Sequence record: PV467749.1
DNA: 64,000 nucleotides
Source of the DNA: a phage
Strand: one strand, 5' to 3'
In this document: positions 3,319-43,840 of the stretch, piece after piece
How the letters are laid out: each line of letters begins with the position of its first letter
Position numbering within the stretch: the stretch's first letter is position 1
The notes under the pieces: generated by a model
The model's input: only the letters and a program-made list of their open reading frames with translations
Database searches by the model: none
What the model was told of the DNA's origin: nothing
Program-made: the position numbers and the translations under genes

Positions 3319-3388
3319 ATACTATGCCAGTACTTGATACTGGCTTTTTTTTTGATTAAATATAGTATAATGAATAAAGGAGGGAATT
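3319..3388 (+). promoter_or_regulatory. array cassette: terminator + promoter + SD
   Basis: gccagtacttgatactggc 3326-3344 + T-run; gattaaatatagtataatgaataaaggaggg. Confidence 0.7.
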
Positions 3389-4510: not shown

Positions 4511-4581
4511 TAATAGGTCAGTACTCAAGTACTGGCTTTTCTTTTTGATTAAATATAGTATAATGAATAAAGGAGGGAATT
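4511..4581 (+). promoter_or_regulatory. array cassette: terminator + promoter + SD
   Basis: gtcagtactcaagtactggc 4517-4536 + T-run; same promoter/SD string. Confidence 0.7.
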
Positions 4582-5763: not shown

Positions 5764-5837
5764 ATGATACCAGTACTGAAATACGTACTGGTATTTTTTT
5801 GTAAATACATTATAATTATTATATGGAGATTTTAGTT
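5764..5837 (+). promoter_or_regulatory. variant array cassette: terminator + promoter + SD
   Basis: accagtac-tgaaatac-gtactggt 5769-5792 + T7; gtaaatacattataat; ggag before ATG 5838. Confidence 0.65.
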
Positions 5838-6968
5838 ATGTTACCTTTTGTTAGAATGTTTGATTATGGGAATACAGTGGCTGCTCCCACTGGTATAAAG
5901 GATTTCCAAGCAAATGGAAGCCACTGTATGGCACTAACATATAGTGGTGAGATGTGGGCTTATGGTACAAGTACAAGTGGATCAATGGGAACCGGATTCA
6001 CGGTGGGTGCTGCTGATAAGGGTTGGTACAAGTCTAACATTAGTAATGTTAAATCATTCAGTTCTAATATGCAGACTAGCACAGTGGCTTTGACAAATGA
6101 TGATAGAGTGCTAGTTTGTGGCTCAACTAGATTTGACAAATTCAGTACTCCAGATATTGCATCATCTAACCTTGATTGGTTGGATGTTACTGATCATATT
6201 CCACAGGAAGTTATTGATGCTGGGATGAAGCAAGTTATTAACCACGCATATTATGTTGCCATTTTTACTGAAAACAATCTATTATATAGTGTGGCATTAT
6301 CTTTGGGTAATACTAGTACTATAATAGATAGAACATGGCGAAGAAATACATTTGGTGATATACAAGTTGAACGTGTTGTTTCGTTGACACAAACCCCAAG
6401 TGGTCCTTTGTGTATAGTTCAAGATGCTGCCGGATACCAGTATGGTATTGGATATAATGGTAATAAGATTATTGATAATACTTCCACTAATTCATATTCT
6501 GTATATACCAAAATGGGTACACTTCCTTACAATGAATTTGCCATATCGAATAGCGGGAAATTCAGTTCAGCGGTATTATCAGATGGGAGAAGTGTTTATA
6601 GTGGTACATTTCCAAAGTCATTCAATGATAGTTTTGGTTCATTTTTGAAAGTTGGTGCGGTATCAAATACTGTGTTTGGTTTAGATGCAAAAAATATGCG
6701 TGGTCAATATGGTCAAAATCAATTACCAATTGCGTCGGCTGATAACAATGCAAGTAATGGCGTTGTGAGCCTTCGTAATGTTCCAGCGGGAACACAAACG
6801 AAAGACATTCGATTTATATGCGGAAATGATGTAAAGAACGTTTATATCATATACACAAATGAAGACGGCATTAGTTCATTTTATGGATTGGGACCAAACT
6901 TTGATCAAAATTCCTCAGCATATGCACAATTCGTCAAAGTGGATTTGCCAGGGGCATTACTAAATTAA
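5838..6968 (+). CDS. divergent propeller-repeat protein, array member 6
   Basis: MLPFVRMFDYGN at internal Met of ORF 5823; weaker repeats (GTSTSGSMGTG); C-term FVKVDLPG. Confidence 0.8.
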   Translation: MLPFVRMFDYGNTVAAPTGIKDFQANGSHCMALTYSGEMWAYGTSTSGSMGTGFTVGAADKGWYKSNISNVKSFSSNMQTSTVALTNDDRVLVCGSTRFDKFSTPDIASSNLDWLDVTDHIPQEVIDAGMKQVINHAYYVAIFTENNLLYSVALSLGNTSTIIDRTWRRNTFGDIQVERVVSLTQTPSGPLCIVQDAAGYQYGIGYNGNKIIDNTSTNSYSVYTKMGTLPYNEFAISNSGKFSSAVLSDGRSVYSGTFPKSFNDSFGSFLKVGAVSNTVFGLDAKNMRGQYGQNQLPIASADNNASNGVVSLRNVPAGTQTKDIRFICGNDVKNVYIIYTNEDGISSFYGLGPNFDQNSSAYAQFVKVDLPGALLN

Positions 6969-6978
6969 GGAGAGAAAT

Positions 6979-8181
6979 ATGTTACCTTTTGCGAGGATGG
7001 TTAAGTTCGGGAATATTGCACCAGGGCCAGAACCAATAGAGTTCTCAAATGTTTTACAACAACATTATACAAACTGTATGTATCTACATAGCCCAACTAA
7101 TACTTTATATGGTTATGGTAGTAATAACTTTTATCAATTTGGTCTTGGGAATTCAGCAGCAGTTGCGTCATTTACAGTACTTGCAACGCGATGTGCAGCC
7201 TTTTGGCTTGGTGTTCAAGGTTCATTGATGATTGATTTGGATAATAAAATATACTACACTGGGTCGGTTGGTGCATTTTCTGATTATGGAGATGCAACAC
7301 CTGTTAATGGTTATTTGAGAACATGGACTGATGTTACTGCTTCATTTAATAAAATTGGTGTTATGGCTAATATGATCAAGAGTGTATATATAGGTGAAAG
7401 TACTAGAATATTATTAACCGATGGTAGAGTAATTGCGTGTGGAAGAAATACCAATGGTGAATGTGGGTCTGGTAATCGAAATTCCATACCTACACTAACA
7501 GTTATGACTAATATGGGTGAAGTTACACATATGGCATGTTCATTACAAGGAACGCACTATATTAAATCAAATAAAAAGGCATGGTTTTGTGGTAAGGATA
7601 ACTTCGGTGAAAGTGGTTGTGGTGCTAGTTCTATGATATATTTGAACAAATATGTGATGAGTGATGTCGAACATATTAGTACTACATACGATGTTACTTG
7701 GTGGTTTACTACTGGTGGGCCTGTATATTATAGCGGGGCTAACAGTACTGGACAAGCTGGTAATGGTACGACTACATCGGTAAATCAGCTAACACCAATT
7801 AGGAACACATCGGTCACGGTTGATGTAAGTAAGTACAGTACTTTTATTTGTCCAAGTAATATGGGAAATGCATCAATTGGTGCACCTATGGCACAATACG
7901 CACCATATGTTAGAAGTAGTGGTGCTAACGGATACGGTCAAGAAGGTAATGGAACTAATACATTAGTTAGGACTTGGAATATTTTTAATCTTAATGCAAT
8001 AAGTGGTGGTTATGACAATGTTCTTATGGCATCTAAAGATTGGAGCAGAACCATAATAATTACTAAAGATTATAAATTATATGCATGTGGTGGCTGGAAT
8101 GGTAATGGTGGTAGATTGCCTGATGGCACTTATAGTATTACTACACTAACATTAATGCCAACGCAGTTATGGCAACAATAG
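6979..8181 (+). CDS. RCC1-like repeat protein, array member 7 (VKFGN subtype)
   Basis: MLPFARMVKFGNIAPGP. SD aaggagag lies 10 nt after the stop of member 6, with no cassette. GSNNFYQFGLGN, GRNTNGECGSGN, GANGYGQEGNG. Confidence 0.85.
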   Translation: MLPFARMVKFGNIAPGPEPIEFSNVLQQHYTNCMYLHSPTNTLYGYGSNNFYQFGLGNSAAVASFTVLATRCAAFWLGVQGSLMIDLDNKIYYTGSVGAFSDYGDATPVNGYLRTWTDVTASFNKIGVMANMIKSVYIGESTRILLTDGRVIACGRNTNGECGSGNRNSIPTLTVMTNMGEVTHMACSLQGTHYIKSNKKAWFCGKDNFGESGCGASSMIYLNKYVMSDVEHISTTYDVTWWFTTGGPVYYSGANSTGQAGNGTTTSVNQLTPIRNTSVTVDVSKYSTFICPSNMGNASIGAPMAQYAPYVRSSGANGYGQEGNGTNTLVRTWNIFNLNAISGGYDNVLMASKDWSRTIIITKDYKLYACGGWNGNGGRLPDGTYSITTLTLMPTQLWQQ

Positions 8182-8189
8182 GAGGAATT

Positions 8190-9299
8190 ATGTTACCTTT
8201 TGTAAGACTATTTGATTATGGGAATATTACCTCTGGTCCTAAAAATATAATTAAAGTTGGTGCTTCTACTCAAGGTCAATTCGTATTGACTGATTCACAT
8301 GAATTGTATTACATAGGCAGAAATCAAGGTGGTGAATCTGGAAATGGTAATAAAAACACGGTATCTTCTTGGACATTAGTAAGTGCAGATGTTTCTAATT
8401 TTTTCACTGGAGGACGAACACTTGTTATTATTAAAAATGACAATACGATATGGACATCAGGTGAAACATTTTGGTTCACATCATCATCAACAACTTCTTA
8501 CAGTACTACATTAGTTGATAGAACGGAGTGGTTTACAAATACAATTCCTGTGAATCAAATTGCTAATATTGTATGCAATGGTGGTGTAATATTTGTACTC
8601 AGTTCAAGTTCAGTACTCTATGGTGCTGGGGCTAATGGATACCGTGGTGTATTGGGGATTGGTTCTTCATCAATATATACATTAACACTATGTGCTTCTA
8701 ATGTGCGTAAAGTTATGTCTACTCCTAATGATAGTATGTATATTAGCATAGATAATAAGTTATATAGTTCAGGGTGGAATGACCGTGGATTACATGGCAC
8801 AGGGAACAGAACACAAGTTAACATTTGGGGACTGCGTAGTTCTGGTGTAATAGATGCAGCTATTGGTGGACATACACTCAATTACTATAATGGTACATCA
8901 TATTTCACATGTGGTACAACTCCAAACTTTCTTAGTTCAGATTCAACTACATTCAAAGCAGTTCCTGTAAGTACTTTACCTAATAATTCACCTTTGTTTA
9001 TGACAAATTCAGAGGCAACAAGCACGGCTACGCAAATTATATTAACTAGTGCATATCAGAAAGGTATTGGGGGAAACCGTGGTTTGGGATTAAACAATTC
9101 TCAAACGGGTGCTATCTATAGTGCTGCTAATTTACAATTACCTGTAGAAGTTAGTGAGATTAGTGATGTTGCTTTTAGTGACGGATTAACATCATTATTA
9201 ACCAAAGACGGGAATGTATATAGTACTGGATCGTATTACGCCATTCCAGGTGCAAGTGCAGATGTTGCAGTCTTTACTAAAATTGATTTACCAAAATAA
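8190..9299 (+). CDS. RCC1-like repeat protein, array member 8
   Basis: MLPFVRLFDYGN at ATG 8190 after taggagg; no cassette upstream; GRNQGGESGNGNKN, GWNDRGLHGTGN; C-term FTKIDLPK. Confidence 0.85.
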   Translation: MLPFVRLFDYGNITSGPKNIIKVGASTQGQFVLTDSHELYYIGRNQGGESGNGNKNTVSSWTLVSADVSNFFTGGRTLVIIKNDNTIWTSGETFWFTSSSTTSYSTTLVDRTEWFTNTIPVNQIANIVCNGGVIFVLSSSSVLYGAGANGYRGVLGIGSSSIYTLTLCASNVRKVMSTPNDSMYISIDNKLYSSGWNDRGLHGTGNRTQVNIWGLRSSGVIDAAIGGHTLNYYNGTSYFTCGTTPNFLSSDSTTFKAVPVSTLPNNSPLFMTNSEATSTATQIILTSAYQKGIGGNRGLGLNNSQTGAIYSAANLQLPVEVSEISDVAFSDGLTSLLTKDGNVYSTGSYYAIPGASADVAVFTKIDLPK

Positions 9300-9369
9300 C
9301 ATAATGCCAGTACAGAGTACTGGCTTTTCTTTTTGGTTAAATATAGTATAATGAATAAAGGAGGGAATT
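9300..9369 (+). promoter_or_regulatory. array cassette: terminator + promoter + SD
   Basis: gccagtacagagtactggc 9306-9324 + T-run; ggttaaatatagtataatgaataaaggaggg. Confidence 0.7.
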
Positions 9370-10539
9370 ATGTTACCTTTTGCAAGAATGGTTAAGTACG
9401 GGAATATTGCACCTGTTCGCCCTGAAATAAAGAAATTGGATGGTAGTCAATCACATGTCGGATTACTATATAGTACTGGTAATATGTATATGCGTGGTTC
9501 TGGTTCGAACTACCAGTTAGGTACAGGTGATGCTAGTGATGTATTAGATGGTTGGGTACATGTACCCTATGAAGTTGATGATTTTTGGGCGTGTGTGTTC
9601 GGTACATTAATAAAGACTAAAGACAATAAGTTATATTGTGCAGGACTATCAATGGGTGGATATTTTGGTGCTAGTGGTTCATATGTTAACTGGACTGAAG
9701 TAACTTCATTATTTGTGGGTATTAACGTCTCACAAATAAAGAATATAGAATTTACATCAGCGAATACTTCCGGTAGTACACTAATATTGATGTTAGATGG
9801 TAGTTTATATGGGTTCGGCATGAACAGTAGATCAGAGTTAGGTGTTACAAACAAAGTCGTATCTCCTATTCTTATAGATACTGGGGTAAGTTCAATAGGA
9901 GCACATAAATTAGGTGGTTCATCGTTCCATTATATAAAAGACGGTAAGTACTACAGATGTGGAACATCGGTTGGTCGTAATATTGGGATTTCTTCTTTGA
10001 CTACTTTTACTGAATTGAGTATTCCTGATAACGTTATATCTATGCAAATATTATATGACAACGTACAGTTATTATGTTTAGGAAGTTCTGGATATAGTAT
10101 CTATATGGCTGGTTCGAATAATTATGGTGGAAGAGGTGTTGATGGTAGTACTATTTACTCTACATTCAGGAAAATAGATCTTACTGGATTTGGTGTTGTT
10201 CCCAGTGAAATACTATTTGAAAATGCAGGGAATGGTTATGTTAATATATCAACTGATAGTACTGGCATATATACATGTGGTGGTGGTGCTGGTGTTAATG
10301 GTTTAGGTAGACCGAGTAATGTGATATCAAGTTCACAGTTGGGTTTGATTGAGTTCAGTACAGGATTATACCCAGCAAATATAAGTCGTGTATTTTCACA
10401 GAGTTCATCTTCTGTTATATATTGTATAGTTAATAATGAATTGTACTGGGCTGGGAGTAATTCATATTTTACTGATCAAACTACAAATACTGGTACACAA
10501 TTTTCATTTATTAAGATGAAGGATATGCCTTCTGCTTAG
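9370..10539 (+). CDS. RCC1-like repeat protein, array member 9 (VKYGN subtype)
   Basis: MLPFARMVKYGNIAPVRP; GSGSNYQLGTGD, GMNSRSELGV. Confidence 0.85.
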   Translation: MLPFARMVKYGNIAPVRPEIKKLDGSQSHVGLLYSTGNMYMRGSGSNYQLGTGDASDVLDGWVHVPYEVDDFWACVFGTLIKTKDNKLYCAGLSMGGYFGASGSYVNWTEVTSLFVGINVSQIKNIEFTSANTSGSTLILMLDGSLYGFGMNSRSELGVTNKVVSPILIDTGVSSIGAHKLGGSSFHYIKDGKYYRCGTSVGRNIGISSLTTFTELSIPDNVISMQILYDNVQLLCLGSSGYSIYMAGSNNYGGRGVDGSTIYSTFRKIDLTGFGVVPSEILFENAGNGYVNISTDSTGIYTCGGGAGVNGLGRPSNVISSSQLGLIEFSTGLYPANISRVFSQSSSSVIYCIVNNELYWAGSNSYFTDQTTNTGTQFSFIKMKDMPSA

Positions 10540-10612
10540 ATTTTATGCCAGTACTTGATACTGGCTTTTCTTTTTTGTATTAAATATAGTATAATGAATA
10601 AAGGAGGGAATT
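10540..10612 (+). promoter_or_regulatory. array cassette: terminator + promoter + SD
   Basis: gccagtacttgatactggc 10547-10565 + T-run; canonical promoter/SD string. Confidence 0.7.
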
Positions 10613-11792
10613 ATGTTACCTTTTGTTAGATTATTTGATTATGGGAATATTGCCCCTGTCAAAGATACTGTTGTTAAAATTAATAGTGATGAAAATTCAA
10701 TAAGCGTATTATACAGTGATGGGTCATTATATATGCGTGGACGGAAACCAATCAGCAAAAATGGGAGTTACTGGTTCATCTTTTTTGGATAGATGGGTTT
10801 TATGTCCTTATAGTGTTGATGATTTCTGGAGTTCTCTATATTGTACTATAATTAGAACAAAACAAGGGGAATTGTACTATAGTGGGACTAACTCAGTTTT
10901 TGGTATATCATCTTCGGTTTCAACATGGACTCGTTGTGAATCATATTTTGGATCTATTTCTCCGAGTTCAATAAAAGATATAAAAATAACATCATCAACC
11001 GGAACTAACAATTCCATGTTAATACTAACAAGTGACGGGCAGTTATATGGTATAGGCATGAATGGTGCAAGTGAATTGGGTACAGCAACTGCACCAATTA
11101 CATCTCCACTCTTAATTGACACTAGTGTATCTGCAATTGCATCTAGTGAAATGAGCAGAAACTTTCACTATATAAAAGATGGTATATATTATCGTTGTGG
11201 TGAGAATACTTTTTATCAATTAGGAACCGGTGATAATAAGCCTATTACTAGTTTTACTGCATTGAATCTTGGTAGTTCTCATGTAATTGCAGTACAAGCT
11301 ACACGATGGGTAACACGTTTGATTGTTCAAAGTAGTACATCTGCTTTGTCTTTAATGGCGGCTGGTTGGAACACACAGTTGACTATAGGTGGTTCTGAAA
11401 ATACTGGTATAATAAGGTCATCATTTACTACCAATCCCTATACCGATATAACAGCAAATTCATTCGATAAACTTTCACCAGTATCCTATGTTAATGCAAT
11501 AAAATCCAGTACTAACATTATTAATACGAATGGTAAGGGATATAATTCTAATGGTGCTGGTTTAGGCCGCAACGCAGTCTCTGGGAATTATGGTTCAATA
11601 TTACCAATAGAATTCTTTGATGATAGTGTTGACTTATCACATGTTGAGTGGTTTGGTACGATTGGTAATGGTTCAGTATCGGTAGTTAGTATAGGTGAGG
11701 ATTTATACTGGACTGGAAACCCTGGGTATTTTACTGAACAAGGTGAGACTGGATATATATATAAATTCAAAAAGTGCGTTCCTTTTAGATAA
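10613..11792 (+). pseudogene. RCC1-like array member 10, frame disrupted near nt 10739-10743
   Basis: ATG 10613 gives MLPFVRLFDYGNIAPVKD...SLYMRG and then hits a stop at 10790. The homologous continuation (GNQSAKMGVTGSSFLDRWVLCPYSVDDFW, compare member 9) is in the +1 frame, i.e. ORF 10716..11792. Confidence 0.7.
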
Positions 11793-11863
11793 ACACAATG
11801 CCAGTACTTGAGTACTGGCATTCTTTTTGATTAAATATAGTATAATGAATAAAGGAGGGAAAT
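11793..11863 (+). promoter_or_regulatory. array cassette: terminator + promoter + SD
   Basis: gccagtacttgagtactggc 11800-11819 + T-run; canonical string. Confidence 0.7.
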
Positions 11864-13042
11864 ATGTTACCTTTTGTTAGAATGTTTGATTATGGAAATA
11901 TTACACCTGGTGTACCAACACCAAAAGATTTCTTTTTGGATGTATCATCTGGCAAACCTACTATGTTGATGCTTTTGGATAACGGCGAAGTATGGGGTTG
12001 TAGTAATGATGGACAACTATTAGGTTTAAACACTACCGCGTCAGCATACGGTAAGCCATACTTTGTTATGGAAAATGTTAAGTTAATGTTCGCGTCAGTG
12101 TGGGGGACATTACTTATCACTAACGATAATAAAGTGAAGTACACTGGCAGACAAACCATGTTTAATGGTTCATCAAATTATTGGAGTACTTTTCAAGATT
12201 TTACAACGAAGTACACTGCTGTTGGTATTGACATAAGTACTATAGAAAAAGTTGGATTCAATACTGGTACATTATTCCTACGCACAACTAATGGTGATTT
12301 ATGGGGTCATGGAAATAACGCTAATGGTTATTTCGGAAAAGGAAATACCGTGGCGAATTACACACCAACCAAGATCAAGACTAATACATTAGATTTTTGG
12401 TTAACTAATGGGAATGCAATTGTACAAACTGGCACTAAAGAATTCTATGCTACTGGTGATAATTATTATTATCAAATGGGTGTTACGACTACTGGTAATA
12501 TAACAACATGGACACAGATTTTTAAGGACGCTACTGATGATCCTGAGTTTGAATATAATGCAATGCGAACAAGTCAAGCAACATTAATACTTTACGGTAA
12601 AGGAACTACATTCTACGCAAGTGGGAGAAACTATATGAGTTCATGGGGTGTATCTGGAGCACCAGTGGATGTTAATACTACACTATATAAAGGTACGTTA
12701 CCATTTGTACCCGGTGATTTAACATATTTTTATGCTGGTCGAGAACAAGCATATTGGACTAACTTAATCATTGATACTAATGGAGTTCTGTACATATCTG
12801 GAACAAAAGATGGGGGTGGTGGTTCAAATGCACCTATATTTGAAGTATTACCGACCCCAAGTAGTGCAGTTGGGTTCAAATGTGGCACAGCAACACGTTC
12901 TTATGCTATAATGGATTGTACTGGCAATCAATTTATGTACGCACGTGGTACAGCTTTGTCAGACCCTGCTGGCTTTACACCAATGAGTACACCATTAAAT
13001 CATACATGGACACACATAACAGATTTTAAATTTAACCGATAA
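11864..13042 (+). CDS. RCC1-like repeat protein, array member 11
   Basis: MLPFVRMFDYGN; GNNANGYFGKGN, GDNYYYQMGV. Confidence 0.85.
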   Translation: MLPFVRMFDYGNITPGVPTPKDFFLDVSSGKPTMLMLLDNGEVWGCSNDGQLLGLNTTASAYGKPYFVMENVKLMFASVWGTLLITNDNKVKYTGRQTMFNGSSNYWSTFQDFTTKYTAVGIDISTIEKVGFNTGTLFLRTTNGDLWGHGNNANGYFGKGNTVANYTPTKIKTNTLDFWLTNGNAIVQTGTKEFYATGDNYYYQMGVTTTGNITTWTQIFKDATDDPEFEYNAMRTSQATLILYGKGTTFYASGRNYMSSWGVSGAPVDVNTTLYKGTLPFVPGDLTYFYAGREQAYWTNLIIDTNGVLYISGTKDGGGGSNAPIFEVLPTPSSAVGFKCGTATRSYAIMDCTGNQFMYARGTALSDPAGFTPMSTPLNHTWTHITDFKFNR

Positions 13043-13112
13043 TATTATGCCAGTACTTGATACTGGCATTTCTTTTTGTATTAAATATAGTATAATGAAT
13101 AAAGGAGGAAAT
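13043..13112 (+). promoter_or_regulatory. array cassette: terminator + promoter + SD
   Basis: gccagtacttgatactggc 13049-13067 + T-run; canonical string. Confidence 0.7.
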
Positions 13113-14288
13113 ATGTTACCTTTTGCAAGAATGGTTAAGTACGGAAACAGAGTTCCAGCACCTTCAGGTGTTATGAAGATAAGTACATCTCCATCACATA
13201 TGGGTATGTTATTTGATAGTGGTAACTTATATCTACGTGGAAATGGTGCACACTATATGCTAGGAAATAATAGCACTGCGTATGTGCAAAATGGGTGGGT
13301 ACAGTGTCCATATAAAGTTTCTAATGTTTGGTGCTTCTTTGCAGCAACAATTATACTTACGACTGACGGAGAATTTTACTTAGCTGGTCAAATGGGTTAT
13401 GTCGGTGTATCTGCATCACCAGTTCCTGGATGGACTAATATCACATCTTTATTGTCTACAATACCAGCACTTACTACAGTAGTAGATATAGCTGCTACTG
13501 AAACTACTGCATCAAATGGTGCGTTATTGATTTTGTTAAGTAATGGGGACTTATATGGGATTGGGCGTAATACAGGAGGTGCATTGGGTGTTACTGGTAG
13601 AAAAACAACGCCAATTCAGATTGCTACTGGGGTTACTATAATTGCGGGAACAACGGCTGGGGATGCTTTCCATTATGTTAAAAATAATCAATACTACAGA
13701 TGTGGGAATAACGCAAGTTACAACTTAGGATCAGGTTCTTCTAACCTTTCGACATTTACGGTAAGTACTGATATATCGGGAACAGTTATTGGTATTTCAT
13801 GTACTACATTAACGACTTCAGTACTTACATCTAATAGAAATAATATTAATGTATATACGGCTGGAAAAAACACTGATTATTGTTTAGGAATAGGGTATGG
13901 CGACACTACTAGTATCATGAGTCCATTTAGTGCCACTCCCGCAATTAGTGGTATTATACCAGATGCTGGGTCGATGAACAATCACAGTTTGAATTATTTT
14001 ATAATGGCAATGACACAGAATGGTAAACTTTATACATGTGGTAGTGGTGTTCCTCTTGGTTGGCCTGTTACTACTGCATCAGAAAGATCTTATTACCACC
14101 AGGTACAATATGAGGATATGGATGTTGCACCAGATGTTAATGCATTTTCAGTTCAAGGTGGTTCTGGTGTGTTATACGCGTTAGTGGGGACTAATGAGGT
14201 GTACTGGTGTGGTAACGGGTCTATGTTTCAGGAACAGAGTCCAGGTACACAACAAGTTAAAATGAAGAAAATGATTTTACCAGAATAA
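13113..14288 (+). CDS. RCC1-like repeat protein, array member 12 (VKYGN subtype)
   Basis: MLPFARMVKYGNRVPAP at Met23 of ORF 13047; GRNTGGALGV, GNNASYNLGSG; C-term KKMILPE. Confidence 0.85.
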   Translation: MLPFARMVKYGNRVPAPSGVMKISTSPSHMGMLFDSGNLYLRGNGAHYMLGNNSTAYVQNGWVQCPYKVSNVWCFFAATIILTTDGEFYLAGQMGYVGVSASPVPGWTNITSLLSTIPALTTVVDIAATETTASNGALLILLSNGDLYGIGRNTGGALGVTGRKTTPIQIATGVTIIAGTTAGDAFHYVKNNQYYRCGNNASYNLGSGSSNLSTFTVSTDISGTVIGISCTTLTTSVLTSNRNNINVYTAGKNTDYCLGIGYGDTTSIMSPFSATPAISGIIPDAGSMNNHSLNYFIMAMTQNGKLYTCGSGVPLGWPVTTASERSYYHQVQYEDMDVAPDVNAFSVQGGSGVLYALVGTNEVYWCGNGSMFQEQSPGTQQVKMKKMILPE

Positions 14289-14367
14289 AATGTGAAATAC
14301 AATGCATGTACTCAGTACTGGCTTTTCTTTTTTATTAAATATAGTATAATGAATAAAGGAGGGAAAT
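14289..14367 (+). promoter_or_regulatory. array cassette with degenerate hairpin
   Basis: gcatgtactcagtactggc 14303-14321 (two mismatches in the stem) + T-run; canonical promoter/SD. Confidence 0.55.
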
Positions 14368-15717
14368 ATGTTACCTTTTGTTAGAATGTTTGATTATGGG
14401 AATACAGTAGATGTTCCAACTGTAAAGAAATTCGACTCCATTGGTATGGGTCATGATAGGAATGGTGGTGGTAATTGGTTTGGTGCAATATTAGCATCAA
14501 ATGGAAATTTATATGGTATTGGTCAAACAAAATATGTTTCTTTTGGTATAACACCAACCAATGGTACAGGAATTGAATTAGTACGAAAAAATGTAAACAA
14601 TTTTTGGCTACTATCAAATGGAATAATAGTTAAAGATAATGATGGTTCATATCATTTTTGTGGTGTATATGCAAATGGAATATTCACACATTCAAGTATA
14701 ACTACAGCACCTTTTATAACAAATGGTTTTATAAATGTATCTTCTTATTTTTCTAACGTAGGTGAAGTTGTGGAAATGGTATTCTGTGGTGGATATGATA
14801 AAGGTCCAGCAACATCATTAACCCCAGCATACACTTCAAAATATAGTTGTATTTTGGCAGCATTGAACACTAATGGTGAAATCTGGTATATGGGTTTGTC
14901 GATACAAGGTTTAATAAACAACTCCACATCAGATTACTACTTTACTTCTTTTACTAAAGATAATCAATTGACACAAAAAGCAGTTTCATTAAGATGCACA
15001 ATAGACATGTCACATAATAATGTGTATTTTGTTGGTAATAGACCTGTACTTTATGCCAAATTAGAAGATGGTACAATCGTAGGCAAGGGATATAATATAC
15101 GATATGGTATACAAAAACCAGCTAGTACAAACCAAGTGATTAAAACGTGGACTACAGTGGCTGTAATCGGAACAGCAGATGATTTTGATGCAACAAACGA
15201 AGGCATGATGTACTGCTCAAATTCACAACTATATCGCTGTGGTAATGGTGGTGGTTTTTCTTTCTGGAATGGTACAAGTAGTGTGTATTATATGGGCTAC
15301 AACGTTGGTATGTTTCTAATCGGTGCGAATGACGTCAACCGTGTAGCGGGTGGTTTTAACGTCCTAACTACAGGGATTAAAGATGATGTAGGTATAAATG
15401 TACCAACTTCATCCAGTACCAAAATACGAATGAACTACTGTGGAACTGTAATTTTTGAACCCGGAACAACATCAATATATAAAGCACATGGTGTTTATAG
15501 TGATTACTATGCTAGTCCTTCATGGCAAGCGGGAGCAGTCGCTTCATTTACATATGAAGACATTGGTATTAAAATCAAAGATGCTATGTATGTTGGTGGT
15601 ACTCTTGGGTTTACAACATATGGATTATTAGTGGTTAGTACTGAAGGTAAGGTATATTGGAGAGGTGTGTACAACGGTGTAACATATAAAACACTCACAG
15701 AAATACATTTGTTGTAA
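14368..15717 (+). CDS. divergent propeller-like protein, array member 13 (449 aa)
   Basis: MLPFVRMFDYGN start. The body is poorly RCC1-like; membership rests on the N-terminus and the cassette. Confidence 0.75.
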   Translation: MLPFVRMFDYGNTVDVPTVKKFDSIGMGHDRNGGGNWFGAILASNGNLYGIGQTKYVSFGITPTNGTGIELVRKNVNNFWLLSNGIIVKDNDGSYHFCGVYANGIFTHSSITTAPFITNGFINVSSYFSNVGEVVEMVFCGGYDKGPATSLTPAYTSKYSCILAALNTNGEIWYMGLSIQGLINNSTSDYYFTSFTKDNQLTQKAVSLRCTIDMSHNNVYFVGNRPVLYAKLEDGTIVGKGYNIRYGIQKPASTNQVIKTWTTVAVIGTADDFDATNEGMMYCSNSQLYRCGNGGGFSFWNGTSSVYYMGYNVGMFLIGANDVNRVAGGFNVLTTGIKDDVGINVPTSSSTKIRMNYCGTVIFEPGTTSIYKAHGVYSDYYASPSWQAGAVASFTYEDIGIKIKDAMYVGGTLGFTTYGLLVVSTEGKVYWRGVYNGVTYKTLTEIHLL

Positions 15718-15787
15718 TATAGTGCCAGTACTCTGTACTGGCTTTTCTTTTTGTATTAAATATAGTATAATGAATAAAGGAGGAATT
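15718..15787 (+). promoter_or_regulatory. array cassette: terminator + promoter + SD
   Basis: gccagtactctgtactggc 15723-15741 + T-run; canonical string. Confidence 0.7.
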
Positions 15788-16939
15788 ATGTTACCTTTTG
15801 CAAGAATGGTTAAGTACGGGAATATTTCACCTGTTCCTGCAACACCAACTATAAAAGATTTTAAGATTGGTTTTACCCATGAAGTGTTATTGGACAGTGC
15901 AGGTGATGTGTGGGGTATTGGATATAATACCGCTGGACAGTTGGGATTTCTGGATGCTAACACAAATTCAATAGGAATGTGGTCTAAGATACATGAGAAT
16001 GTTAGATTAATTGGCGTTACTGCCAAATATACTGTAGTTGTTACAAATGATAATAGAATACTTTACGCCGGAAATAACTTAATTTCTAGTACTACAACGC
16101 TTGGGTGGAACGATATAACGTCCAGTATGGGAGAGGTTGCAGTGGATAGTATAGATACATTATATTGCACAGATGGAATGATGCATATTAAAACTGCTGA
16201 TGGCTCTTTATATGCATATGGACGTAATATGAACGCGAACGCTGGAGTTACAGGCGTTTCTGGCGTTATTAGTGTTGCAACTAAAGTTAATGGTTTACCA
16301 TCGGCAGTGAAGGATATACGATATACGTTTAGTTATGGTTCAGTACTATGCCAATTTGATACCACTTCGGTATATGGATGGGGAAGAAATGTCAATGGTG
16401 AATTAGGTCAGGGGAATGCAGCCGCAGTTCCTGCCCCATACCTATTGGCGGGAGCTTCTATTGTTATAGGTACTTCTTATAATGCTACTGCCATTGTTTC
16501 TGGTACTGGAACGTTAGTTACATGTGGTGGACAAAATAATGGTCAGTTAGGTAATGGTATTACTACTGCTGGTAATGTATACATATATGGTGCTAGGTCA
16601 TACCCTGGCGATCTTAATAATATAAGAAGTCCAGTAGATTGTAGTACAACTTATACTTCCGCATTTATGAGTACAGATGGTATATATTACACGGGTTCGA
16701 ACCGAAGTGTTTTTGGTGGTGCGAGTGGTTCTGCTACTGTTGCATTATATACTAAATGTAGTGATTTGCCAATATTATATTCCAATATAACTCAGTGGGG
16801 TAGTGGTACTATTGGTGGGGCGATATGTAGCAGAACTGAATTATATCAGTGTGGTACAGGTAGATACATTGCCGGAGATGGACAGAACGCAACTAGGTAT
16901 GGGTTTAGAAAGACACCATTACCTTGGGATGTTTATTGA
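15788..16939 (+). CDS. RCC1-like repeat protein, array member 14 (VKYGN subtype)
   Basis: MLPFARMVKYGNISPVP at ATG 15788; GRNVNGELGQGN, GQNNGQLGNG (best RCC1 match in the array). Confidence 0.9.
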   Translation: MLPFARMVKYGNISPVPATPTIKDFKIGFTHEVLLDSAGDVWGIGYNTAGQLGFLDANTNSIGMWSKIHENVRLIGVTAKYTVVVTNDNRILYAGNNLISSTTTLGWNDITSSMGEVAVDSIDTLYCTDGMMHIKTADGSLYAYGRNMNANAGVTGVSGVISVATKVNGLPSAVKDIRYTFSYGSVLCQFDTTSVYGWGRNVNGELGQGNAAAVPAPYLLAGASIVIGTSYNATAIVSGTGTLVTCGGQNNGQLGNGITTAGNVYIYGARSYPGDLNNIRSPVDCSTTYTSAFMSTDGIYYTGSNRSVFGGASGSATVALYTKCSDLPILYSNITQWGSGTIGGAICSRTELYQCGTGRYIAGDGQNATRYGFRKTPLPWDVY

Positions 16940-16945
16940 AATAAT

Positions 16946-16965
16946 GCCAGTACTCAAGTACTGGC
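16946..16965. terminator. bidirectional hairpin between convergent genes
   Basis: gccagtac-tcaa-gtactggc, A-rich before and T-run after. Confidence 0.7.
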
Positions 16966-16972
16966 ATTTCTT

Positions 16973-17623
16973 TTACATATTATATAATGTGAATGCAGTC
17001 ACTTTACCAGTTGTTGTTAGTTCATTATAAAGATACTCCAAGATTCTCGCACACTCTAAGTATATCTCGATATCATCATGAATAAGTGAGTACTGAAATA
17101 GCTGTTCTTCAGGTAATTTGTATTGACTTCCTTTTAATGAATTGAGAATATCTTTCACATCATCAAGTACTGGGTAAAGTACGAAATCTTCATCATATTT
17201 TGAAGCAATAAATTCAAATCCACCACCATCAGTACTAGATATACCAATCAGTACTTTATCAATCAAGTTAATGTTTATATAACGGTTGTGATTTGGGTGA
17301 ATTGAAATCTCAAACATACGAGTACTGTTACAATCAACATCAATATACAAATATACATCATTGAATTTATAAGTTAAACAACCGTACTCAAGAAAATCAG
17401 AACAAATAATTGATGAGTTTTTTCTTGTCTCTGCGTAATGCATCTTGATATTCTTTTCACGCATAAGTAATTCGAACTTTGCACTAAACTTGCCACCAGC
17501 AAGATAGTTAGTATTAGGACGTTTGTAACTTGCAACTGGTCGGTGGGATGATGTAAAGTATTTTTTTGTGAATCGTTTCTGTTTAGTGAAATATTCTTGA
17601 TAGAACTTACTTCTTTTATTCAT
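16973..17623 (-). CDS. hypothetical protein, EE-x-FQ family member inserted in the array on the opposite strand
   Basis: 216 aa ORF; C-terminal PEEQLFQYSLIHDD motif shared with 10 other ORFs in the window. Confidence 0.75.
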   Translation of the reverse strand: MNKRSKFYQEYFTKQKRFTKKYFTSSHRPVASYKRPNTNYLAGGKFSAKFELLMREKNIKMHYAETRKNSSIICSDFLEYGCLTYKFNDVYLYIDVDCNSTRMFEISIHPNHNRYININLIDKVLIGISSTDGGGFEFIASKYDEDFVLYPVLDDVKDILNSLKGSQYKLPEEQLFQYSLIHDDIEIYLECARILEYLYNELTTTGKVTAFTLYNM

Positions 17624-17700
17624 GAGTACCTCAATTAAATCGCTGTAAAATTGTACATTATAAAATGATTAAATAAAGTATAACACAAGGAGATTTTATC
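17624..17700. promoter_or_regulatory. divergent promoter region
   Basis: The + side has gattaaataaagtataac + aaggag before ATG 17701. The minus side has ttttataat upstream of ATG 17623. Confidence 0.5.
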
Positions 17701-18825
17701 ATGTTACCTTTCGTATTGTTATTTGATTATGGGAACGAAAAACAAGAAAGTTCTTATGATGTTAGTGTATATGGAAACAATAACTACATTTTAAATAAAC
17801 AAACTGGAAACCTTTTTGCATCCGGTGCTGCGGCATTCATGGGTGATAACACAGTTAAGTATTATATTACCCAAATAGAATCAAATGTTCATAGCTGTGA
17901 GATAGGTTTCCTATCATCATGGATAATTAAGAAGGACAAAACTGTTTTCATTTTAGGAAACAAAAGCAGTATAGGATTAACTGGTTCGACAACATCATGG
18001 TTCGAAATTACAAATTTATTTTCTGCTGTTCCTGAAATATGGGACAACCTATTTGAATGTAAAGTTCAATTGGGATATAACTGTATACGTGTTATGACAC
18101 CACTAGGATCAATCTATGCGATTGGTACAAACACTTATGGTGCATTGGGTACTGGTACTACATCCTCATCAACTTCGTTCGTTAAAAGTGGTGCTGTGGA
18201 TGCTGTACGCATGGAATCAACAGAACGTTCAGTGTTCTATCAAAACAGTTCTGGACAATGGTTTGGATGTGGTGATAACACATATGGTATACTAGGTCTA
18301 GGAACTACCGCGAGTCGTGTAAACTCATACACCGCACCAGTATGGACTAATGCAGAAGCTGTTAGCTTCTCTAACCGTGGGATCATATACAGCCTCAATG
18401 GTACTCTATACTCATGTGGTGACAAAGTTAATGGTCAGCTAGGGGATGGATATACACAAAGCATAGACGCTGCCAGGAGCACACCATACACCATAGGAAC
18501 CGCATTCCAAATTGGTAAGGCAATAACATCAGCTACACAAGCATCAGCCAACGTATTCATTGGTAAAGATAATAAGTTCTATGGTACTGGTAGTATTGCT
18601 GCTGGTATAAATGGTAGTACTAGTGCTGCATTAAGTAAAGTTACTGCGTTATCAGCAGCACTACCACCTGACATTACATACAATGATATTATAACATTTA
18701 ATACAGGGACCGTAACTTTTATTCAAGCAAAAGGACAACTATATTATGTTGGTAGAAGAACTTACATAGATAATAGTTCAGACGTTACCACACAGTTCAG
18801 TGTAATTGGTGGCTTAGATAATTAA
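17701..18825 (+). CDS. RCC1-like repeat protein, array member 15/16 (last)
   Basis: MLPFVLLFDYGN; GTNTYGALGTGT, GDNTYGILGLGT, GDKVNGQLGDG. Confidence 0.85.
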   Translation: MLPFVLLFDYGNEKQESSYDVSVYGNNNYILNKQTGNLFASGAAAFMGDNTVKYYITQIESNVHSCEIGFLSSWIIKKDKTVFILGNKSSIGLTGSTTSWFEITNLFSAVPEIWDNLFECKVQLGYNCIRVMTPLGSIYAIGTNTYGALGTGTTSSSTSFVKSGAVDAVRMESTERSVFYQNSSGQWFGCGDNTYGILGLGTTASRVNSYTAPVWTNAEAVSFSNRGIIYSLNGTLYSCGDKVNGQLGDGYTQSIDAARSTPYTIGTAFQIGKAITSATQASANVFIGKDNKFYGTGSIAAGINGSTSAALSKVTALSAALPPDITYNDIITFNTGTVTFIQAKGQLYYVGRRTYIDNSSDVTTQFSVIGGLDN

Positions 18826-21368: not shown

Positions 21369-22142
21369 TTAAATTTTCTCAAGGAACATGTTTTCTGCCA
21401 TTGACTCCCAATCATATGGAAATTTATTATACAGACCAGCGATCAGTACTGGCATACGCAGAGAAGGTGAACGCAGCTTTTCTTCGTTGTTCAGCATCCA
21501 GTTTAAGATAGCTTTACAACCATTTTTATTAACCCCATTGTTCTCAAGAATATTAGTCTTGTTCATGATGTTCTCAATGTGAATCATAACTTCTTCGTTA
21601 GTGAACAGTTGAAGATCAACAAAGATACTACGAGTAATCAGTGCATCAATGTGTGGTGCTAAACTGCTTTTACCTTTAGCAATCTGTGACAGGTTTTTGT
21701 TCGTCAGGAAGATTACCTTCCCACGGAATTCAAACTGCTTAGGAATACCCTGCTGTTCCAGGTACTTCCCAGAAGTTGCATAAGATACAACCCGCTTCTC
21801 TGAAGTATCCAGTACTGCTTTGAGCAAGTCAATGTTGGTTTCATCGCTGAAGATATCAACGTCATCAAGTAACAGTACTGAAGCGGCATGACGTGAACGA
21901 TACAGTGCTTCGTACAAACCCATAGTGGTTACTTTACCGCTGATCTTTTTGTAGTCGATTTCAAAGTTATCATCAGCTTTCTGTAAACGCTGGTCAACGT
22001 TGTAAGTTTTACCAACACCACCTTTACCAGATACAATCAGGGAATTGATTGAATTAGCTTGGGTATCAAGTAAACATTCCAAAGCTGCCATCATGCTGTT
22101 GAAGTTCTTTTCGATTTGGATTGCTTTCTCTGTACGGGTCAT
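21369..22142 (-). CDS. P-loop / AAA-like ATPase
   Basis: Walker A SGKGGVGKT; Walker B LLLDDVD; FLTN sensor-like. Confidence 0.7.
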   Translation of the reverse strand: MTRTEKAIQIEKNFNSMMAALECLLDTQANSINSLIVSGKGGVGKTYNVDQRLQKADDNFEIDYKKISGKVTTMGLYEALYRSRHAASVLLLDDVDIFSDETNIDLLKAVLDTSEKRVVSYATSGKYLEQQGIPKQFEFRGKVIFLTNKNLSQIAKGKSSLAPHIDALITRSIFVDLQLFTNEEVMIHIENIMNKTNILENNGVNKNGCKAILNWMLNNEEKLRSPSLRMPVLIAGLYNKFPYDWESMAENMFLEKI

Positions 22143-39703: not shown

Positions 39704-40498
39704 TTAAATTACATATGGTTTATAGTAATGAATCTCGTTTGATATTGCAGCGAAGACTTTGTTATTAAATCTTTCACCATAATCACGAAGAGATTCACCT
39801 TCTTCGCTTTCAATAAAGTAATTATATACTGGTAGACGTGCGGTGTCAACACCTATAAATGATTTCATGTAAATTTGTACTAAACGATTCATTCCTTCAT
39901 TTAAGCATTGCACCTCAAAGTGCTTGATACCTTTGTCTAAATGTTTGAATGCATTAATGATACCACGTTTAAAATCACGCTGCATAGTACTGAATAGATT
40001 CTCAGGGAACACTGTAATAGGTGACATTGATTTAAGAATGTATGTATCTTTAGCATTCTTAATATACTCAATGAAGCAGTAGTTAACGTCAGGCTCGATA
40101 GAACGATCAGCGTTATGATACCAGTACTTAAACTCACTGTACTCAGCAAACTTATGCTGGCGTAATGCGTTACAATCCTCACACAGTGCAGTCATGTTCT
40201 CTTTATCATTGCCACCCTGGAGACAGTCCAGTACATTATGGTCTAACGTCATGCGTACAAGGCGTTTACCTTTAAGTACATAAGGTCTGAATTTATAACG
40301 GTCTTTAGTACTGTGCTTATGTAAAGTGAATACCACATTGGATTCACCACAACAATCACATTTAAAGCCATCGCGTGACATTACATGAATGAGTTTTCGA
40401 GTATTTGGGCCGAACTCAGATTTAGTAATGTTGCCAACAATTTCTGATGGGTCGTAGTATTTTGAATTCCGGCGAATCAATTCATCTATAGTGCTCAT
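39704..40498 (-). CDS. HNH endonuclease
   Basis: CDCCGESN...TLDHNVLDCLQGGNDKENMTALCEDCNALRQHKF; start moved to MSTIDEL (ggag SD). Confidence 0.7.
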   Translation of the reverse strand: MSTIDELIRRNSKYYDPSEIVGNITKSEFGPNTRKLIHVMSRDGFKCDCCGESNVVFTLHKHSTKDRYKFRPYVLKGKRLVRMTLDHNVLDCLQGGNDKENMTALCEDCNALRQHKFAEYSEFKYWYHNADRSIEPDVNYCFIEYIKNAKDTYILKSMSPITVFPENLFSTMQRDFKRGIINAFKHLDKGIKHFEVQCLNEGMNRLVQIYMKSFIGVDTARLPVYNYFIESEEGESLRDYGERFNNKVFAAISNEIHYYKPYVI

Positions 40499-40499
40499 T

Positions 40500-40727
40500 T
40501 TATATTTCTCCAGCAAGACACTCAAAAGTGACTTTTTTAACTTCGATAACTCGTACCAAATAGTATCCATGAAAGAAATTAAAACCAATCATTTGTGATA
40601 ATGCATCTGCTTCAGATTTTGCACGGATACATGATAGATATAGTTCTCGTATATCGCCATCCAACGATGCTTGTTTCTCGTCATTGATAACAATAGAACG
40701 AATCTCAAAACGAACACCATAACTCAT
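40500..40727 (-). CDS. hypothetical protein
   Basis: 75 aa. Confidence 0.55.
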   Translation of the reverse strand: MSYGVRFEIRSIVINDEKQASLDGDIRELYLSCIRAKSEADALSQMIGFNFFHGYYLVRVIEVKKVTFECLAGEI

Positions 40728-41593: not shown

Positions 41594-42559
41594 TTAAAAA
41601 TCTTCGAACTCATAACCTTTTGTCTTAACCATCTTACGCAGTCGTTCCATTGCTTCAGAGTACTTACGGTGCAATGAAGAACGAGCAGTCATGACCTTAC
41701 CCTTCTCATCTTCAAAACCACTCTCAATGATTTCTCGTAGCGTTTCTGGTTCAGAATAAGAACCAATACCATGTACACGTTCAATCAATTCACGGTCTTT
41801 GGCAGATAGGTTACTCATCATTTCTGCAATACTTTGTACCAGTGGGGTACTGACAGTTTCTACGCCTAAGTTGTAATCAGGTTCAACTGAAGTAACAATG
41901 TCAGATAATGTACTTTCTGAATCATTACTCATTTTCATATTCAATGCTACATAAGTGTTATTGTAAGTTAGACAATTCTTAACGTGTTGAATCTCAATAC
42001 CAGTCTCTTTTGACACCATCTCAGGAGTTGGGTATTTACCATGTTTCCTTTGATACTCTTCTACACAACGTTTCACATAAATGTTATTAACACTCATATA
42101 ACGTGGGAAATGCACTAGATAATTAGCATCCGCACTTTCGTTATAGATTGTCATGTACACAGTTGTTGTTGCATATGTAATGAACTTAACATTTTTGGTA
42201 GTGTCGAACGTATGAATTGCTCGCATTAAACCTTCAACACCATAAGAAATCTTATCTTCAAATGGGATAAAACATGTACACTTACGTGCAACACTTACTA
42301 CCATTGGATAGTTGTAGCGAACCAAAAGGTCAATGTTCTTTTCAACGTCAATACCATCACGCACTGCTTGGATGAGCATTTCATTCGTTATCCCTTTAGG
42401 GCGAGTTAAGCTGATACCTGTTTTTGGTTTCTCAAACTTGTGACCGTCATGTTCTTCTTCTTCGACGGAATCAAGAGCCTCTAATACGTTGACTTCTTCA
42501 CTAGCAAAACACTCATCCAGTACTTCTTCAGAAATTGCATTTAAATCAAGCTTTTTCAC
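41594..42559 (-). CDS. sigma70-family RNA polymerase sigma factor
   Basis: Region 2-like YGVEGLMRAIHTFDTTKNVKFITYATTTVYMTIYN; region 4-like LSAKDRELIERVHGIG...TLREI...ARSSLHRKYSEAMERLRKM; GTG start with ggag SD. Confidence 0.75.
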   Translation of the reverse strand: MKKLDLNAISEEVLDECFASEEVNVLEALDSVEEEEHDGHKFEKPKTGISLTRPKGITNEMLIQAVRDGIDVEKNIDLLVRYNYPMVVSVARKCTCFIPFEDKISYGVEGLMRAIHTFDTTKNVKFITYATTTVYMTIYNESADANYLVHFPRYMSVNNIYVKRCVEEYQRKHGKYPTPEMVSKETGIEIQHVKNCLTYNNTYVALNMKMSNDSESTLSDIVTSVEPDYNLGVETVSTPLVQSIAEMMSNLSAKDRELIERVHGIGSYSEPETLREIIESGFEDEKGKVMTARSSLHRKYSEAMERLRKMVKTKGYEFEDF

Positions 42560-42581
42560 TTACTTCTCCTAATGAATGAAA

Positions 42582-43079
42582 TCAAAAACGGTATACATTA
42601 ATATTATCATCGGTATAGATATCATGGTTATGAACATCCATGAAGGTATCAAATACCTTATCAAGAAGAGTATTATACTCTTCATGTACTGCTGCATCAA
42701 GCATGTATTCACCACCACTACCCATAAAGAATGTATAATCATTATGGAGATAATCAATCTTCTTGGTAAACTTACCCTTATTAACGATTAAGTGAATGAT
42801 GTAATCTTTTGACACAAGAACACAGTGACAACTCGCCTTGCGGTCTGGTATCACAGTCTCTTGTGAAATCAAGTATCTCAGTACTTTGTTAATTTCACTA
42901 ACTTCACCGCAAGCACTAAACAGTCGGTCGTGTACATACAATGTTTTTTGTGAAACTACACCATAACTAAGTTTTGGTTTCAACGGGAATAGGTTCAAAA
43001 ATGAACGTTGCTCAGTTGATGTCACTTTTGAATCAGTAAGTAATACTCCCAAGCGTTTATCAATATAAACAGTCGTCAT
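42582..43079 (-). CDS. HslV/proteasome-beta-like Ntn peptidase candidate
   Basis: MTTVYIDKRLGVLLTDS (compare HslV MTTIVSV...GDG), FMGSGGEYMLDAAV (compare HslV IGSGG.YA.AAA), 165 aa. Confidence 0.5.
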   Translation of the reverse strand: MTTVYIDKRLGVLLTDSKVTSTEQRSFLNLFPLKPKLSYGVVSQKTLYVHDRLFSACGEVSEINKVLRYLISQETVIPDRKASCHCVLVSKDYIIHLIVNKGKFTKKIDYLHNDYTFFMGSGGEYMLDAAVHEEYNTLLDKVFDTFMDVHNHDIYTDDNINVYRF

Positions 43080-43080: not shown

Positions 43081-43500
43081 TTAAACCTTATCTAAAAATT
43101 TATCATAGATATAAAATTCTTTATCGTTGAATACATTAATTCTAGTATCGAAGCGTTGTAGTGTATTCATGTATAATGTTCTTTTTAAATAAAAATACAA
43201 TGCAACAAATTCAGATATATGCATATTCTTTTTATTATTACATAAATTCTTTAGCATTTCAATGCTATCAAAATCATCTTTATCATACCTATACTGGTAA
43301 AAATTATATCTATTGAACTGACACTCATAGATACGAAGTGCCATTATGTCAATACATGCTTTAGATTTACAGTACTTATTCAATACGTCATAATCACCCA
43401 CACATAATGCTACGAAGATTTTATGTGCAAGTGTTGCTTTGCCTTCAATCGTATAATAGCCAAAAAATTTAATGATTAAGTAATGTATAAATCTAAGCAT
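43081..43500 (-). CDS. hypothetical protein
   Basis: 139 aa. Confidence 0.6.
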   Translation of the reverse strand: MLRFIHYLIIKFFGYYTIEGKATLAHKIFVALCVGDYDVLNKYCKSKACIDIMALRIYECQFNRYNFYQYRYDKDDFDSIEMLKNLCNNKKNMHISEFVALYFYLKRTLYMNTLQRFDTRINVFNDKEFYIYDKFLDKV

Positions 43501-43505
43501 TGGAT

Positions 43506-43766
43506 TTAGAATTTCTCCGAAATTACAAGTGTATCATCATAGTCATCAGCAACGGAGTTCAGTACTTCCAAATTACTTTCACCAGAAATACTTTGTACTT
43601 CGTTCAAAAGATAGTTTAGATCAACTTTAGTTACTTTTTCTGAATCAAACACACAGAAAGTCAATTCAGCGTTTGGACAGATCTTCTTCAGATTATCAGC
43701 AACAACTTGTTTGAAGTTAAAAGATGGGGAAGCAACCAGGTTAACTGCAACGAGAATAGATTTCAT
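43506..43766 (-). CDS. hypothetical protein
   Basis: 86 aa. Confidence 0.6.
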   Translation of the reverse strand: MKSILVAVNLVASPSFNFKQVVADNLKKICPNAELTFCVFDSEKVTKVDLNYLLNEVQSISGESNLEVLNSVADDYDDTLVISEKF

Positions 43767-43840
43767 AATGTTTTCCTTTTTAGCTGATAATTAAATTAGG
43801 AGCACATTGTACTCCATGTTATTGGTTAAGTCAAATACTT

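Follow-up and report, generated by a model that had tools for sequence, protein, structure and literature searches.

The minus-strand open reading frame (ORF) 42582..43079 of a stretch of 64,000 nucleotides (nt; referred to below as the window) from the phage sequence record PV467749.1 starts with ATG and encodes a protein of 165 amino acids (aa) with the N-terminus MTTVYIDKRLGVLLTDS and the segment FMGSGGEYMLDAAV at residues 118-131. This protein is almost certainly a homologue of proteasome fold with an intact set of catalytic residues, and its conserved sequence features make it quite likely that it is a catalytically active hydrolase. It is HslV-like, not HslV proper. The original prediction, made from the sequence alone, had described an HslV/proteasome-β-like peptidase candidate next to a sigma factor gene; its account of the length, the N-terminus, the GSGG segment and the sigma neighbour is accurate, and the strand, which it had left out, is the minus strand.

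Proteasome fold and predicted active site

An AlphaFold2 model calculated from 11 close sequences was unusable (predicted local distance difference test, pLDDT, 54), whereas the model calculated from a 23-sequence family alignment, whose members are 20-84% identical to the window protein, reached a pLDDT of 94.7 and a predicted template modelling (pTM) score of 0.85. When this model was compared with the PDB using Foldseek, HslV chains occupied ranks 1-11 (E 1.9e-6 to 3.4e-5). The predicted proteasome fold was thus found, with HslV as the nearest solved structure. Two methods agree that no solved fold is closer than that of HslV, and connectase scores lower than HslV and the β subunits. The fold is an N-terminal nucleophile αββα sandwich nearest to proteasome subunits (MEROPS family T1). 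A search of the PDB with the 23-sequence profile pointed to the same family, as 31 of the 34 listed chains were proteasome β5, β6 or β8 subunits, at sub-threshold E-values (0.045-2).

The homology to annotated phage peptidases of the "HslV family" is solid. The best PHROGs match of the window protein is PHROG 24804 ("unknown function", E 1.8e-86) and the second one is PHROG 1040 ("peptidase HslV family", E 2.8e-6, residues 1-130), which matches 15 of the 23 family members as well (best E 7.8e-18). A bridging protein, P0026, links the window protein (28.5% identity, E 7e-5) with proteins of the Vibrio phages helene, eugene, VnaP and CoeS_P1 (24-31%). Furthermore, hhalign comparison of the core clade with seven PHROG-1040-like proteins gave a full-length alignment with 99.2% probability (E 7.7e-20). 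Similar folds in other large phages were found in BFVD, including the CcrBL9 "Proteasome subunit beta" and proteins of RisingSun, Noxifer, PhiPA3 and RP12.

Among the 23 aligned sequences, M1, T2, T3, D16, G58, G120-S121-G122 and D153 are invariant, and T15, T20, K45 and D51 are nearly so; K45 is present in at least 90% of the members, and either Ser or Thr occupies position 156 in every sequence. The start MTT is found in all 23 members (E. coli HslV likewise starts with MTT), Thr follows the start Met directly, and a propeptide is absent. Methionine aminopeptidase removes a Met that precedes Thr, as in HslV of Escherichia coli. In this superfamily, Thr1 acts in catalysis with its hydroxyl and its free α-amine, alongside Lys33 and Asp17. 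MAFFT and global hhalign alignments with E. coli HslV place T2 on Thr1, D16 on Asp17, K45 on Lys33, G58 on the Gly of the A-G-G motif and S121 on Ser124; in proteasome numbering, G58 corresponds to Gly47, S121 to Ser129, D153 to Asp166 and T156 to Ser169. The HMMER profile alignment puts TT on Thr1-Thr2 of β5, TDSRvT on ADSRAT (containing Asp17), GSGS on Gly128-Ser129-Gly130, and D-k-Y-t on R-D166-A-Y-S169 (β5 R-D-A-Y-S-G-G), and the profile stretch 38-68 corresponds to residues 26-57 of β6. Consequently, the Thr/Lys/Asp triad on which the original prediction depended is represented by T2, K45 and D16, invariant or nearly invariant in the homologues, and the complete superfamily set (Asp17, Lys33, Gly47, Ser129, Asp166 and Ser169) has its counterpart in the alignment. 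The gene and its predicted functional elements are located as follows:

42582..43079 (minus), gene for the proteasome-β/HslV-fold protein (PHROG 24804), 165 aa
43071..43076 (minus), codons of T2 and T3; T2 is the predicted N-terminal nucleophile after loss of the initiator Met (MTT invariant)
43032..43034 (minus), codon of D16 (Asp17), in the motif T-D-S-R-x-T (β5 A-D-S-R-A-T); invariant
42957..43028 (minus), extended β-hairpin, residues 18-41, about 13 residues longer than in HslV (strands 18-27 and 31-41; pLDDT 90-95)
42945..42947 (minus), codon of K45 (Lys33), by MAFFT and global hhalign; in at least 90% of members
42906..42908 (minus), codon of G58 (oxyanion-hole Gly47); invariant, HslV included
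42831..42863 (minus), short loop in place of helix H2, residues 73-83 (model: helix 60-72, coil, strand 84-89)
42714..42722 (minus), codons of G120-S121-G122 (Gly128-Ser129-Gly130; HslV Ser124); invariant (GSGS in β5, GSGG in HslV)
42612..42623 (minus), codons of D153-I-Y-T156 (proteasome Asp166-x-x-Ser169); D153 invariant, position 156 Ser or Thr

Some observations speak against this assignment. The comparison with PF00227 that the original prediction had proposed was negative: Pfam gives no match for the window protein, and PF00227 matches just 2 of the 23 relatives (E 0.0013). The family is too divergent for this sequence model. NCBIfam gives no match for the window protein either, and nothing relevant was obtained with phmmer of the window protein against PDB sequences or with the 11-sequence profile. 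The sequence link to solved structures is weak, the E-values of the profile search in the PDB being 0.045 or worse, and hhalign against the single E. coli HslV sequence gave 8-17% probability for a local match at GSGG. Finally, the active-site equivalences are those of alignment and not of a three-dimensional superposition of the catalytic geometry.

Relation to HslV and to other proteasome homologues

The likeness to HslV that the original prediction had proposed thus extends to the fold, the MTT start, the triad and the GSG motif, but membership in HslV proper did not stand. The curated HslV equivalog models TIGR03692 and NF003964, which recognise the E. coli HslV control with E 3.3e-91, matched none of the 21 phage proteins of alignment A4. 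Identity between HslV (ClpQ; MEROPS T1B) and the window protein is about 15-19%, and the C-terminal motif of HslV, D-x-x-x-Y-T, contrasts with D-x-Y-T of the window protein, which has proteasome-type spacing. The segment between the catalytic Asp and Lys comprises 29 residues compared to 16 in HslV; residues 18-41, which form the extended hairpin, are an insertion relative to HslV in both MAFFT and global hhalign alignments. At the position of helix H2 there is, conversely, a gap of about 20 residues, and the model has one helix (60-72) in place of the H1/H2 pair of HslV and the proteasome. As the longer hairpin and the lost H2 roughly cancel each other, the overall length and the position of GSGG look HslV-like. 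In HslV, the Asp17-Lys33 hairpin makes an intermeshing contact between subunits and creates the groove for HslU's C-terminal motif (PMC7468587). The window protein has neither the H1/H2 pair nor this short HslU-groove hairpin; because the hairpin is remodelled and H2 is gone, canonical docking of HslU is unlikely and the ring geometry may differ.

HslV has a cognate HslU, whereas none is adjacent here and none was found in the phage clade. The original prediction had pointed out that no HslU-like ATPase is adjacent. Indeed, a Pfam scan of the 28 larger ORFs of the window detected no AAA+ unfoldase, only RCC1-repeat families and one sub-threshold P-loop match. The latter lies in a 257-aa ORF (21369-22142, minus strand), in which residues 19-61 match AAA_16 with E 5.2e-4 and 21 bits (cut-off 32.6 bits). 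We rejected this ORF as an unfoldase: it is too small and is located 20 kb from the peptidase gene. A tblastn search of 50,697 phage records with HslU matched 164 of them, mostly chimallin-type Erwinia phages, and included 4 Escherichia records, compared to 33 Escherichia records carrying the peptidase. At the sensitivity of this search, the clade is without an HslU/ClpX-like gene. Likewise, no AAA+ unfoldase was found beside the gene in the Vibrio phages or in the two longest metagenomic contigs examined.

Of the explanations competing with an HslU-independent enzyme, the best surviving one is a functional replacement of HslV, in which the phage rings would dock on the host HslU hexamer or co-assemble with host HslV, producing a hybrid ATP-dependent protease with altered specificity or redirecting host HslU. 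Proteobacteria carry HslUV, and the hosts of the isolated phages are all proteobacteria, so for a phage without its own HslU the host protein is the obvious candidate partner. HslV is the nearest solved structure, MTT and GSGG are HslV-like, and other jumbo-phage clades do encode HslU homologues. The curated HslV models nevertheless fail, helix H2 is absent, the C-terminal D-x-Y-[ST] is proteasome-like and not HslV-like, and the hairpin which in HslV forms the HslU groove (PMC7468587) exceeds that of HslV by about 13 residues and has an unrelated sequence. We consider a replacement of HslV unlikely.

Proteasome homologues of phages have been catalogued before as PPH, AAH and CPH (PMC8665760). 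PPH, described by Fuchs, Alva and Lupas in 2021, are phage-borne proteins of about 140 aa from Caudovirales and their proteobacterial hosts; they belong to the compact "group I" without C-terminal elements and are, together with RPC, the only groups without H2 (PMC8665760). The window protein resembles the PPH group and shares all its traits except the length: it is phage-encoded in proteobacterial hosts, belongs to group I (without S12/H5), lacks H2, keeps the triad and has no known partner ATPase. The likeness is to the description of PPH traits, and the difference in length (165 versus about 140 residues) is due to the extended hairpin. We infer that PHROG 1040, represented in the Vibrio phages helene 12B3, eugene 12A10, VnaP and vB_CoeS_P1, corresponds to PPH. 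Its members are homologous to the window protein over the full length, have MTT, DS, K, GSG and D-x-Y-[ST] in common with it, and are likewise encoded by orphan genes among small, probably early genes. They differ in that PHROGs places the window protein in the separate cluster 24804, that the Vibrio proteins have an additional insertion in the region of the central sheet, and that no sigma factor adjoins their genes.

BPH and Anbu, orphan proteasome homologues of bacteria, are larger cellular proteins of 185-230 aa that keep H1 and H2 (Anbu with a long H5). Connectase, the archaeal protein ligase homologous to the proteasome, lacks H1 and H2 and has a two-helix lid at the S3/S4 site, whereas the window protein keeps H1 and has a β-hairpin; hence, the loss of both helices and the two-helix lid that define connectase are not found here. 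As the lid that confers specificity on connectase sits at the S3/S4 site (PMC8665760) and the hairpin is positioned there as well, the hairpin may set substrate selection or oligomer geometry.

Distribution and genomic context

Orthologues of the peptidase gene were found in 52 phage records (33 of them Escherichia records), with a single copy per genome. The region is 97-99% identical to those of the E. coli jumbo phages WPEC5, fEgEco12, Ecwhy_1 and others (350-385 kb) and about 85% identical to those of 121Q, PBECO4 and phAPEC6. At the protein level, identity to the window protein is 68-100% for E. coli phages, 47-49% for the Klebsiella phages RaK2 (48%) and K64-1, 42% for Erwinia phage Hallingskeid, and 29% for the Salmonella phages Munch and 7t3 and the Klebsiella phage fENko-Kae01. 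Hosts of isolated phages with family members are Escherichia, Klebsiella, Salmonella, Erwinia and Vibrio; phage Sharanji, which carries an orthologue, was isolated on E. coli MG1655. The family is tiny, as a profile search of 1.84 billion representative proteins yielded 17 representatives at E<=1e-3 and word-indexed sequence searches added few further members. PHROG 24804 itself is a small clade, found only in jumbo phages of the RaK2/121Q type and in a few phages from metagenomes.

Existing GenBank annotations of the gene are "ATP-dependent protease subunit HslV" in fEgEco12 and "ATP-dependent protease" in Turkey3; in other records the protein is hypothetical. The label "HslV/ATP-dependent" is an over-annotation, because neither membership in the HslV models nor an ATPase partner is supported. 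The gene is not discussed in the fEgEco12 genome paper, and the PADLOC defence models returned nothing meaningful. In Escherichia phage CMSTMSU (MH494197.1, 185609-185996), the orthologue is present in two pieces under two hypothetical proteins (76% coverage, 89.7% identity), which may stem from a sequencing error, a frameshift or decay into a pseudogene; a genuine split would mean that at least one lineage can do without the gene. P0021, a distant member of the family, is located at 1950-4391 of a 75-kb metagenomic phage-like contig (L007, Logan SRR28800614), a few genes downstream of a UvrD-type helicase gene and a gene for a SIR2-domain protein; no gene for a sigma factor or an ATPase unfoldase lies close to it on this contig.

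The peptidase gene lies in a block of about 100 small, co-oriented, mostly unannotated genes. It is followed by the gene for a sigma factor, whose GTG start is 22 nt behind the TGA stop of the peptidase gene, and is preceded by a 139-aa gene, whose TAA ends 1 nt before the peptidase ATG. No terminator was detected by a scan between the peptidase and the sigma genes. The neighbouring features are:

41594..42559 (minus), gene for a sigma-70-family sigma factor, GTG start (Sigma70_r2 2.6e-9, r3 1.3e-11; PHROG 351)
42566..42570 (minus), AGGAG Shine-Dalgarno sequence of the sigma gene within the 22-nt spacer, read from the sequence
43081..43766 (minus), two upstream co-oriented genes of 139 aa (PHROG 37211) and 86 aa (PHROG 26969), in the same putative operon
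43806..43834 (minus), sigma-70-like promoter candidate TTGACT-17-TACAAT (10 of 12 consensus positions), in the gap of 74 nt that precedes the four-gene unit

fEgEco12, phAPEC6, RaK2 and Munch share the order of peptidase and sigma genes, as does Hallingskeid, where two small ORFs separate them; throughout the clade, the gene is linked to the phage sigma factor. Adjacency to a sigma gene did not extend beyond the RaK2-like clade. The 139-aa gene (43081-43500), which appears to be translationally coupled to the peptidase gene, was considered as a conserved partner and dismissed, as no similarity to it was found upstream of the orthologues in RaK2, Munch, Hallingskeid and the metagenomic contigs. 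Besides the candidate listed, three stronger, near-perfect intergenic matches to the sigma-70 promoter consensus are present further upstream on the minus strand: one of 12/12 at 47340-47313 (TTGACA-16-TATAAT with the extended -10 TG) and two of 11/12 each at 45521-45492 and 44155-44127. Judged by their sequence, these intergenic sites would be consistent with early transcription by the host RNA polymerase. In the related phage CBB, the corresponding region contains RpoD-like promoters and the sigma factor and was proposed to comprise early host-takeover genes (PMC5259590).

The sigma factor of the window has Pfam matches to regions 2 and 3, without any match to region 4 at E<=1, and its N-terminus is extended by an acidic stretch of about 75 residues (EEVLDECFASEEVNVLEALDSVEEEEHD). 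According to the fEgEco12 paper, the corresponding protein Gp519 is "completely absent" in Ecwhy_1. The DNA of Ecwhy_1 is 99% identical and contains a gene annotated as "similar to RNA polymerase sigma factor"; this makes the claimed absence look like an artefact of annotation. An HNH endonuclease gene (39704-40588, minus strand; PHROG 35175, E 3.7e-148; Pfam HNH sub-threshold) follows the sigma gene at a distance of about 1 kb. It may be a mobile homing-endonuclease insertion; the HNH genes Gp520 and Gp570 are among those reported in the fEgEco12 paper to vary between close relatives.

Possible role during infection

Taken together, the sequence evidence makes it moderately probable that the window protein acts as an early, HslU-independent peptidase with an N-terminal threonine on host or phage proteins. 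In this scenario, host methionine aminopeptidase would expose Thr2, as in E. coli HslV, and the subunits would assemble into an oligomer; the enzyme may serve host takeover by cleaving certain proteins or peptides of the host or the phage in the cytoplasm, at an early stage of infection. Early action is suggested by the surroundings of the gene, a block of small genes of the same orientation accompanied by sigma-70-like promoters, and by its probable co-transcription with the phage sigma factor gene. The peptidase would probably function without a canonical partner of the HslU type, since no HslU/ClpX homologue was found in the clade and both HslV elements connected with HslU docking or ring contact are altered, by loss of H2 and by extension of the Asp17-Lys33 hairpin.

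Several points count against such a scenario. The total of sigma-70-like sites is no higher than in shuffled sequence. In Munch, a terminator is annotated between the peptidase and the sigma genes, and no sigma factor gene was found near the genes of the distant family members and Vibrio phage homologues examined. The sigma adjacency may reflect no more than the general synteny of these phages. HslV without HslU is a poor peptidase, and for this reason an orphan enzyme might need an activator. The searchable literature contains no experimental work on any phage proteasome homologue, and no substrate, partner, oligomeric state or infection role has been reported there for any of them.

A more specific version of the early-peptidase scenario would be that peptidase and sigma factor form a host-takeover module, in which the peptidase, as a threonine protease independent of an ATPase or as a ligase of the connectase kind, would act early in infection, either by processing the phage sigma factor or by eliminating a host sigma factor, an anti-sigma factor or a defence protein; the remodelled hairpin and the absence of H2 would then give a non-canonical oligomer of narrow specificity. 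A remodelling of anti-sigma or defence factors had been suggested in the original prediction, and the one observation that bears on it is the neighbouring sigma gene throughout the clade. We regard the module version as rather doubtful, although it would, if true, provide the first function for any viral proteasome homologue as far as the searched literature goes. Still less probable is that the protein is a connectase-like, sequence-specific transpeptidase, ligase or processing enzyme with a single target such as the neighbouring sigma factor. Helix H1 is kept, the insertion is a β-hairpin and not a two-helix lid, and connectase is outscored by HslV and β subunits; furthermore, there is no evidence of ligase chemistry or of sigma factor processing, and distant members are encoded without a sigma factor nearby.

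Phages often encode inactive mimics, and the orphan status of the gene would fit a decoy without catalytic activity, one that binds HslU, HslV or some other factor of the host and blocks it. All seven active-site residues are, however, kept across relatives of 20-30% identity, which would be unexpected for a pure binder and makes a decoy very improbable. Large phages also need maturation proteases. Most of the conserved peptidases of jumbo phages track the virion type, as noted by Iyer et al. (PMC7824862), and this would favour a protease of the virion or prohead. The gene is, nevertheless, located among small non-structural genes beside a sigma factor gene, phAPEC6 possesses a separate "prohead core scaffold and protease" (gp227c), and its orthologue of the window protein (gp067c) is not in the table of the virion proteome determined by mass spectrometry. 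On the basis of this proteome table and the separate prohead protease, we rejected the prohead-protease idea, to which we assign hardly any probability. A chance resemblance of motifs without homology to the proteasome would agree with the lack of a significant Pfam, NCBIfam or PDB sequence match for the protein itself and is, given the fold match and the full-length homology to PHROG-1040-like proteins, the least credible of all these explanations.

Known before this analysis were the phage proteasome homologues (PMC8665760), PHROG 1040 and the HslV-type label on the gene in two records. What is added here is that PHROG 24804, so far of "unknown function", joins the phage proteasome homologues with a full conserved set of predicted active-site residues, and that this clade possesses a distinctive long hairpin and the link to a phage sigma factor described above. 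The RaK2-like clade offers a tractable system, i.e., an E. coli K-12-type host, a small protein whose model is confident and whose active site is intact, and a conserved sigma neighbour. Should the early peptidase need no unfoldase for its activity, this would be relevant to the gating of minimal proteasome-like peptidases as well as to the remodelling of the host proteome by jumbo phages.

About 16 paralogous genes, encoding proteins of 256-449 aa, form a tandem array at 169-18825 of the window (plus strand). RCC1 repeats, as well as an RCC1-like domain (PF25390, best E 7.2e-33), were detected in 14 of the larger ORFs scanned in this array. It corresponds to the "chromosome condensation regulator" genes of the fEgEco12 and phAPEC6 papers and represents a striking expansion of paralogues.

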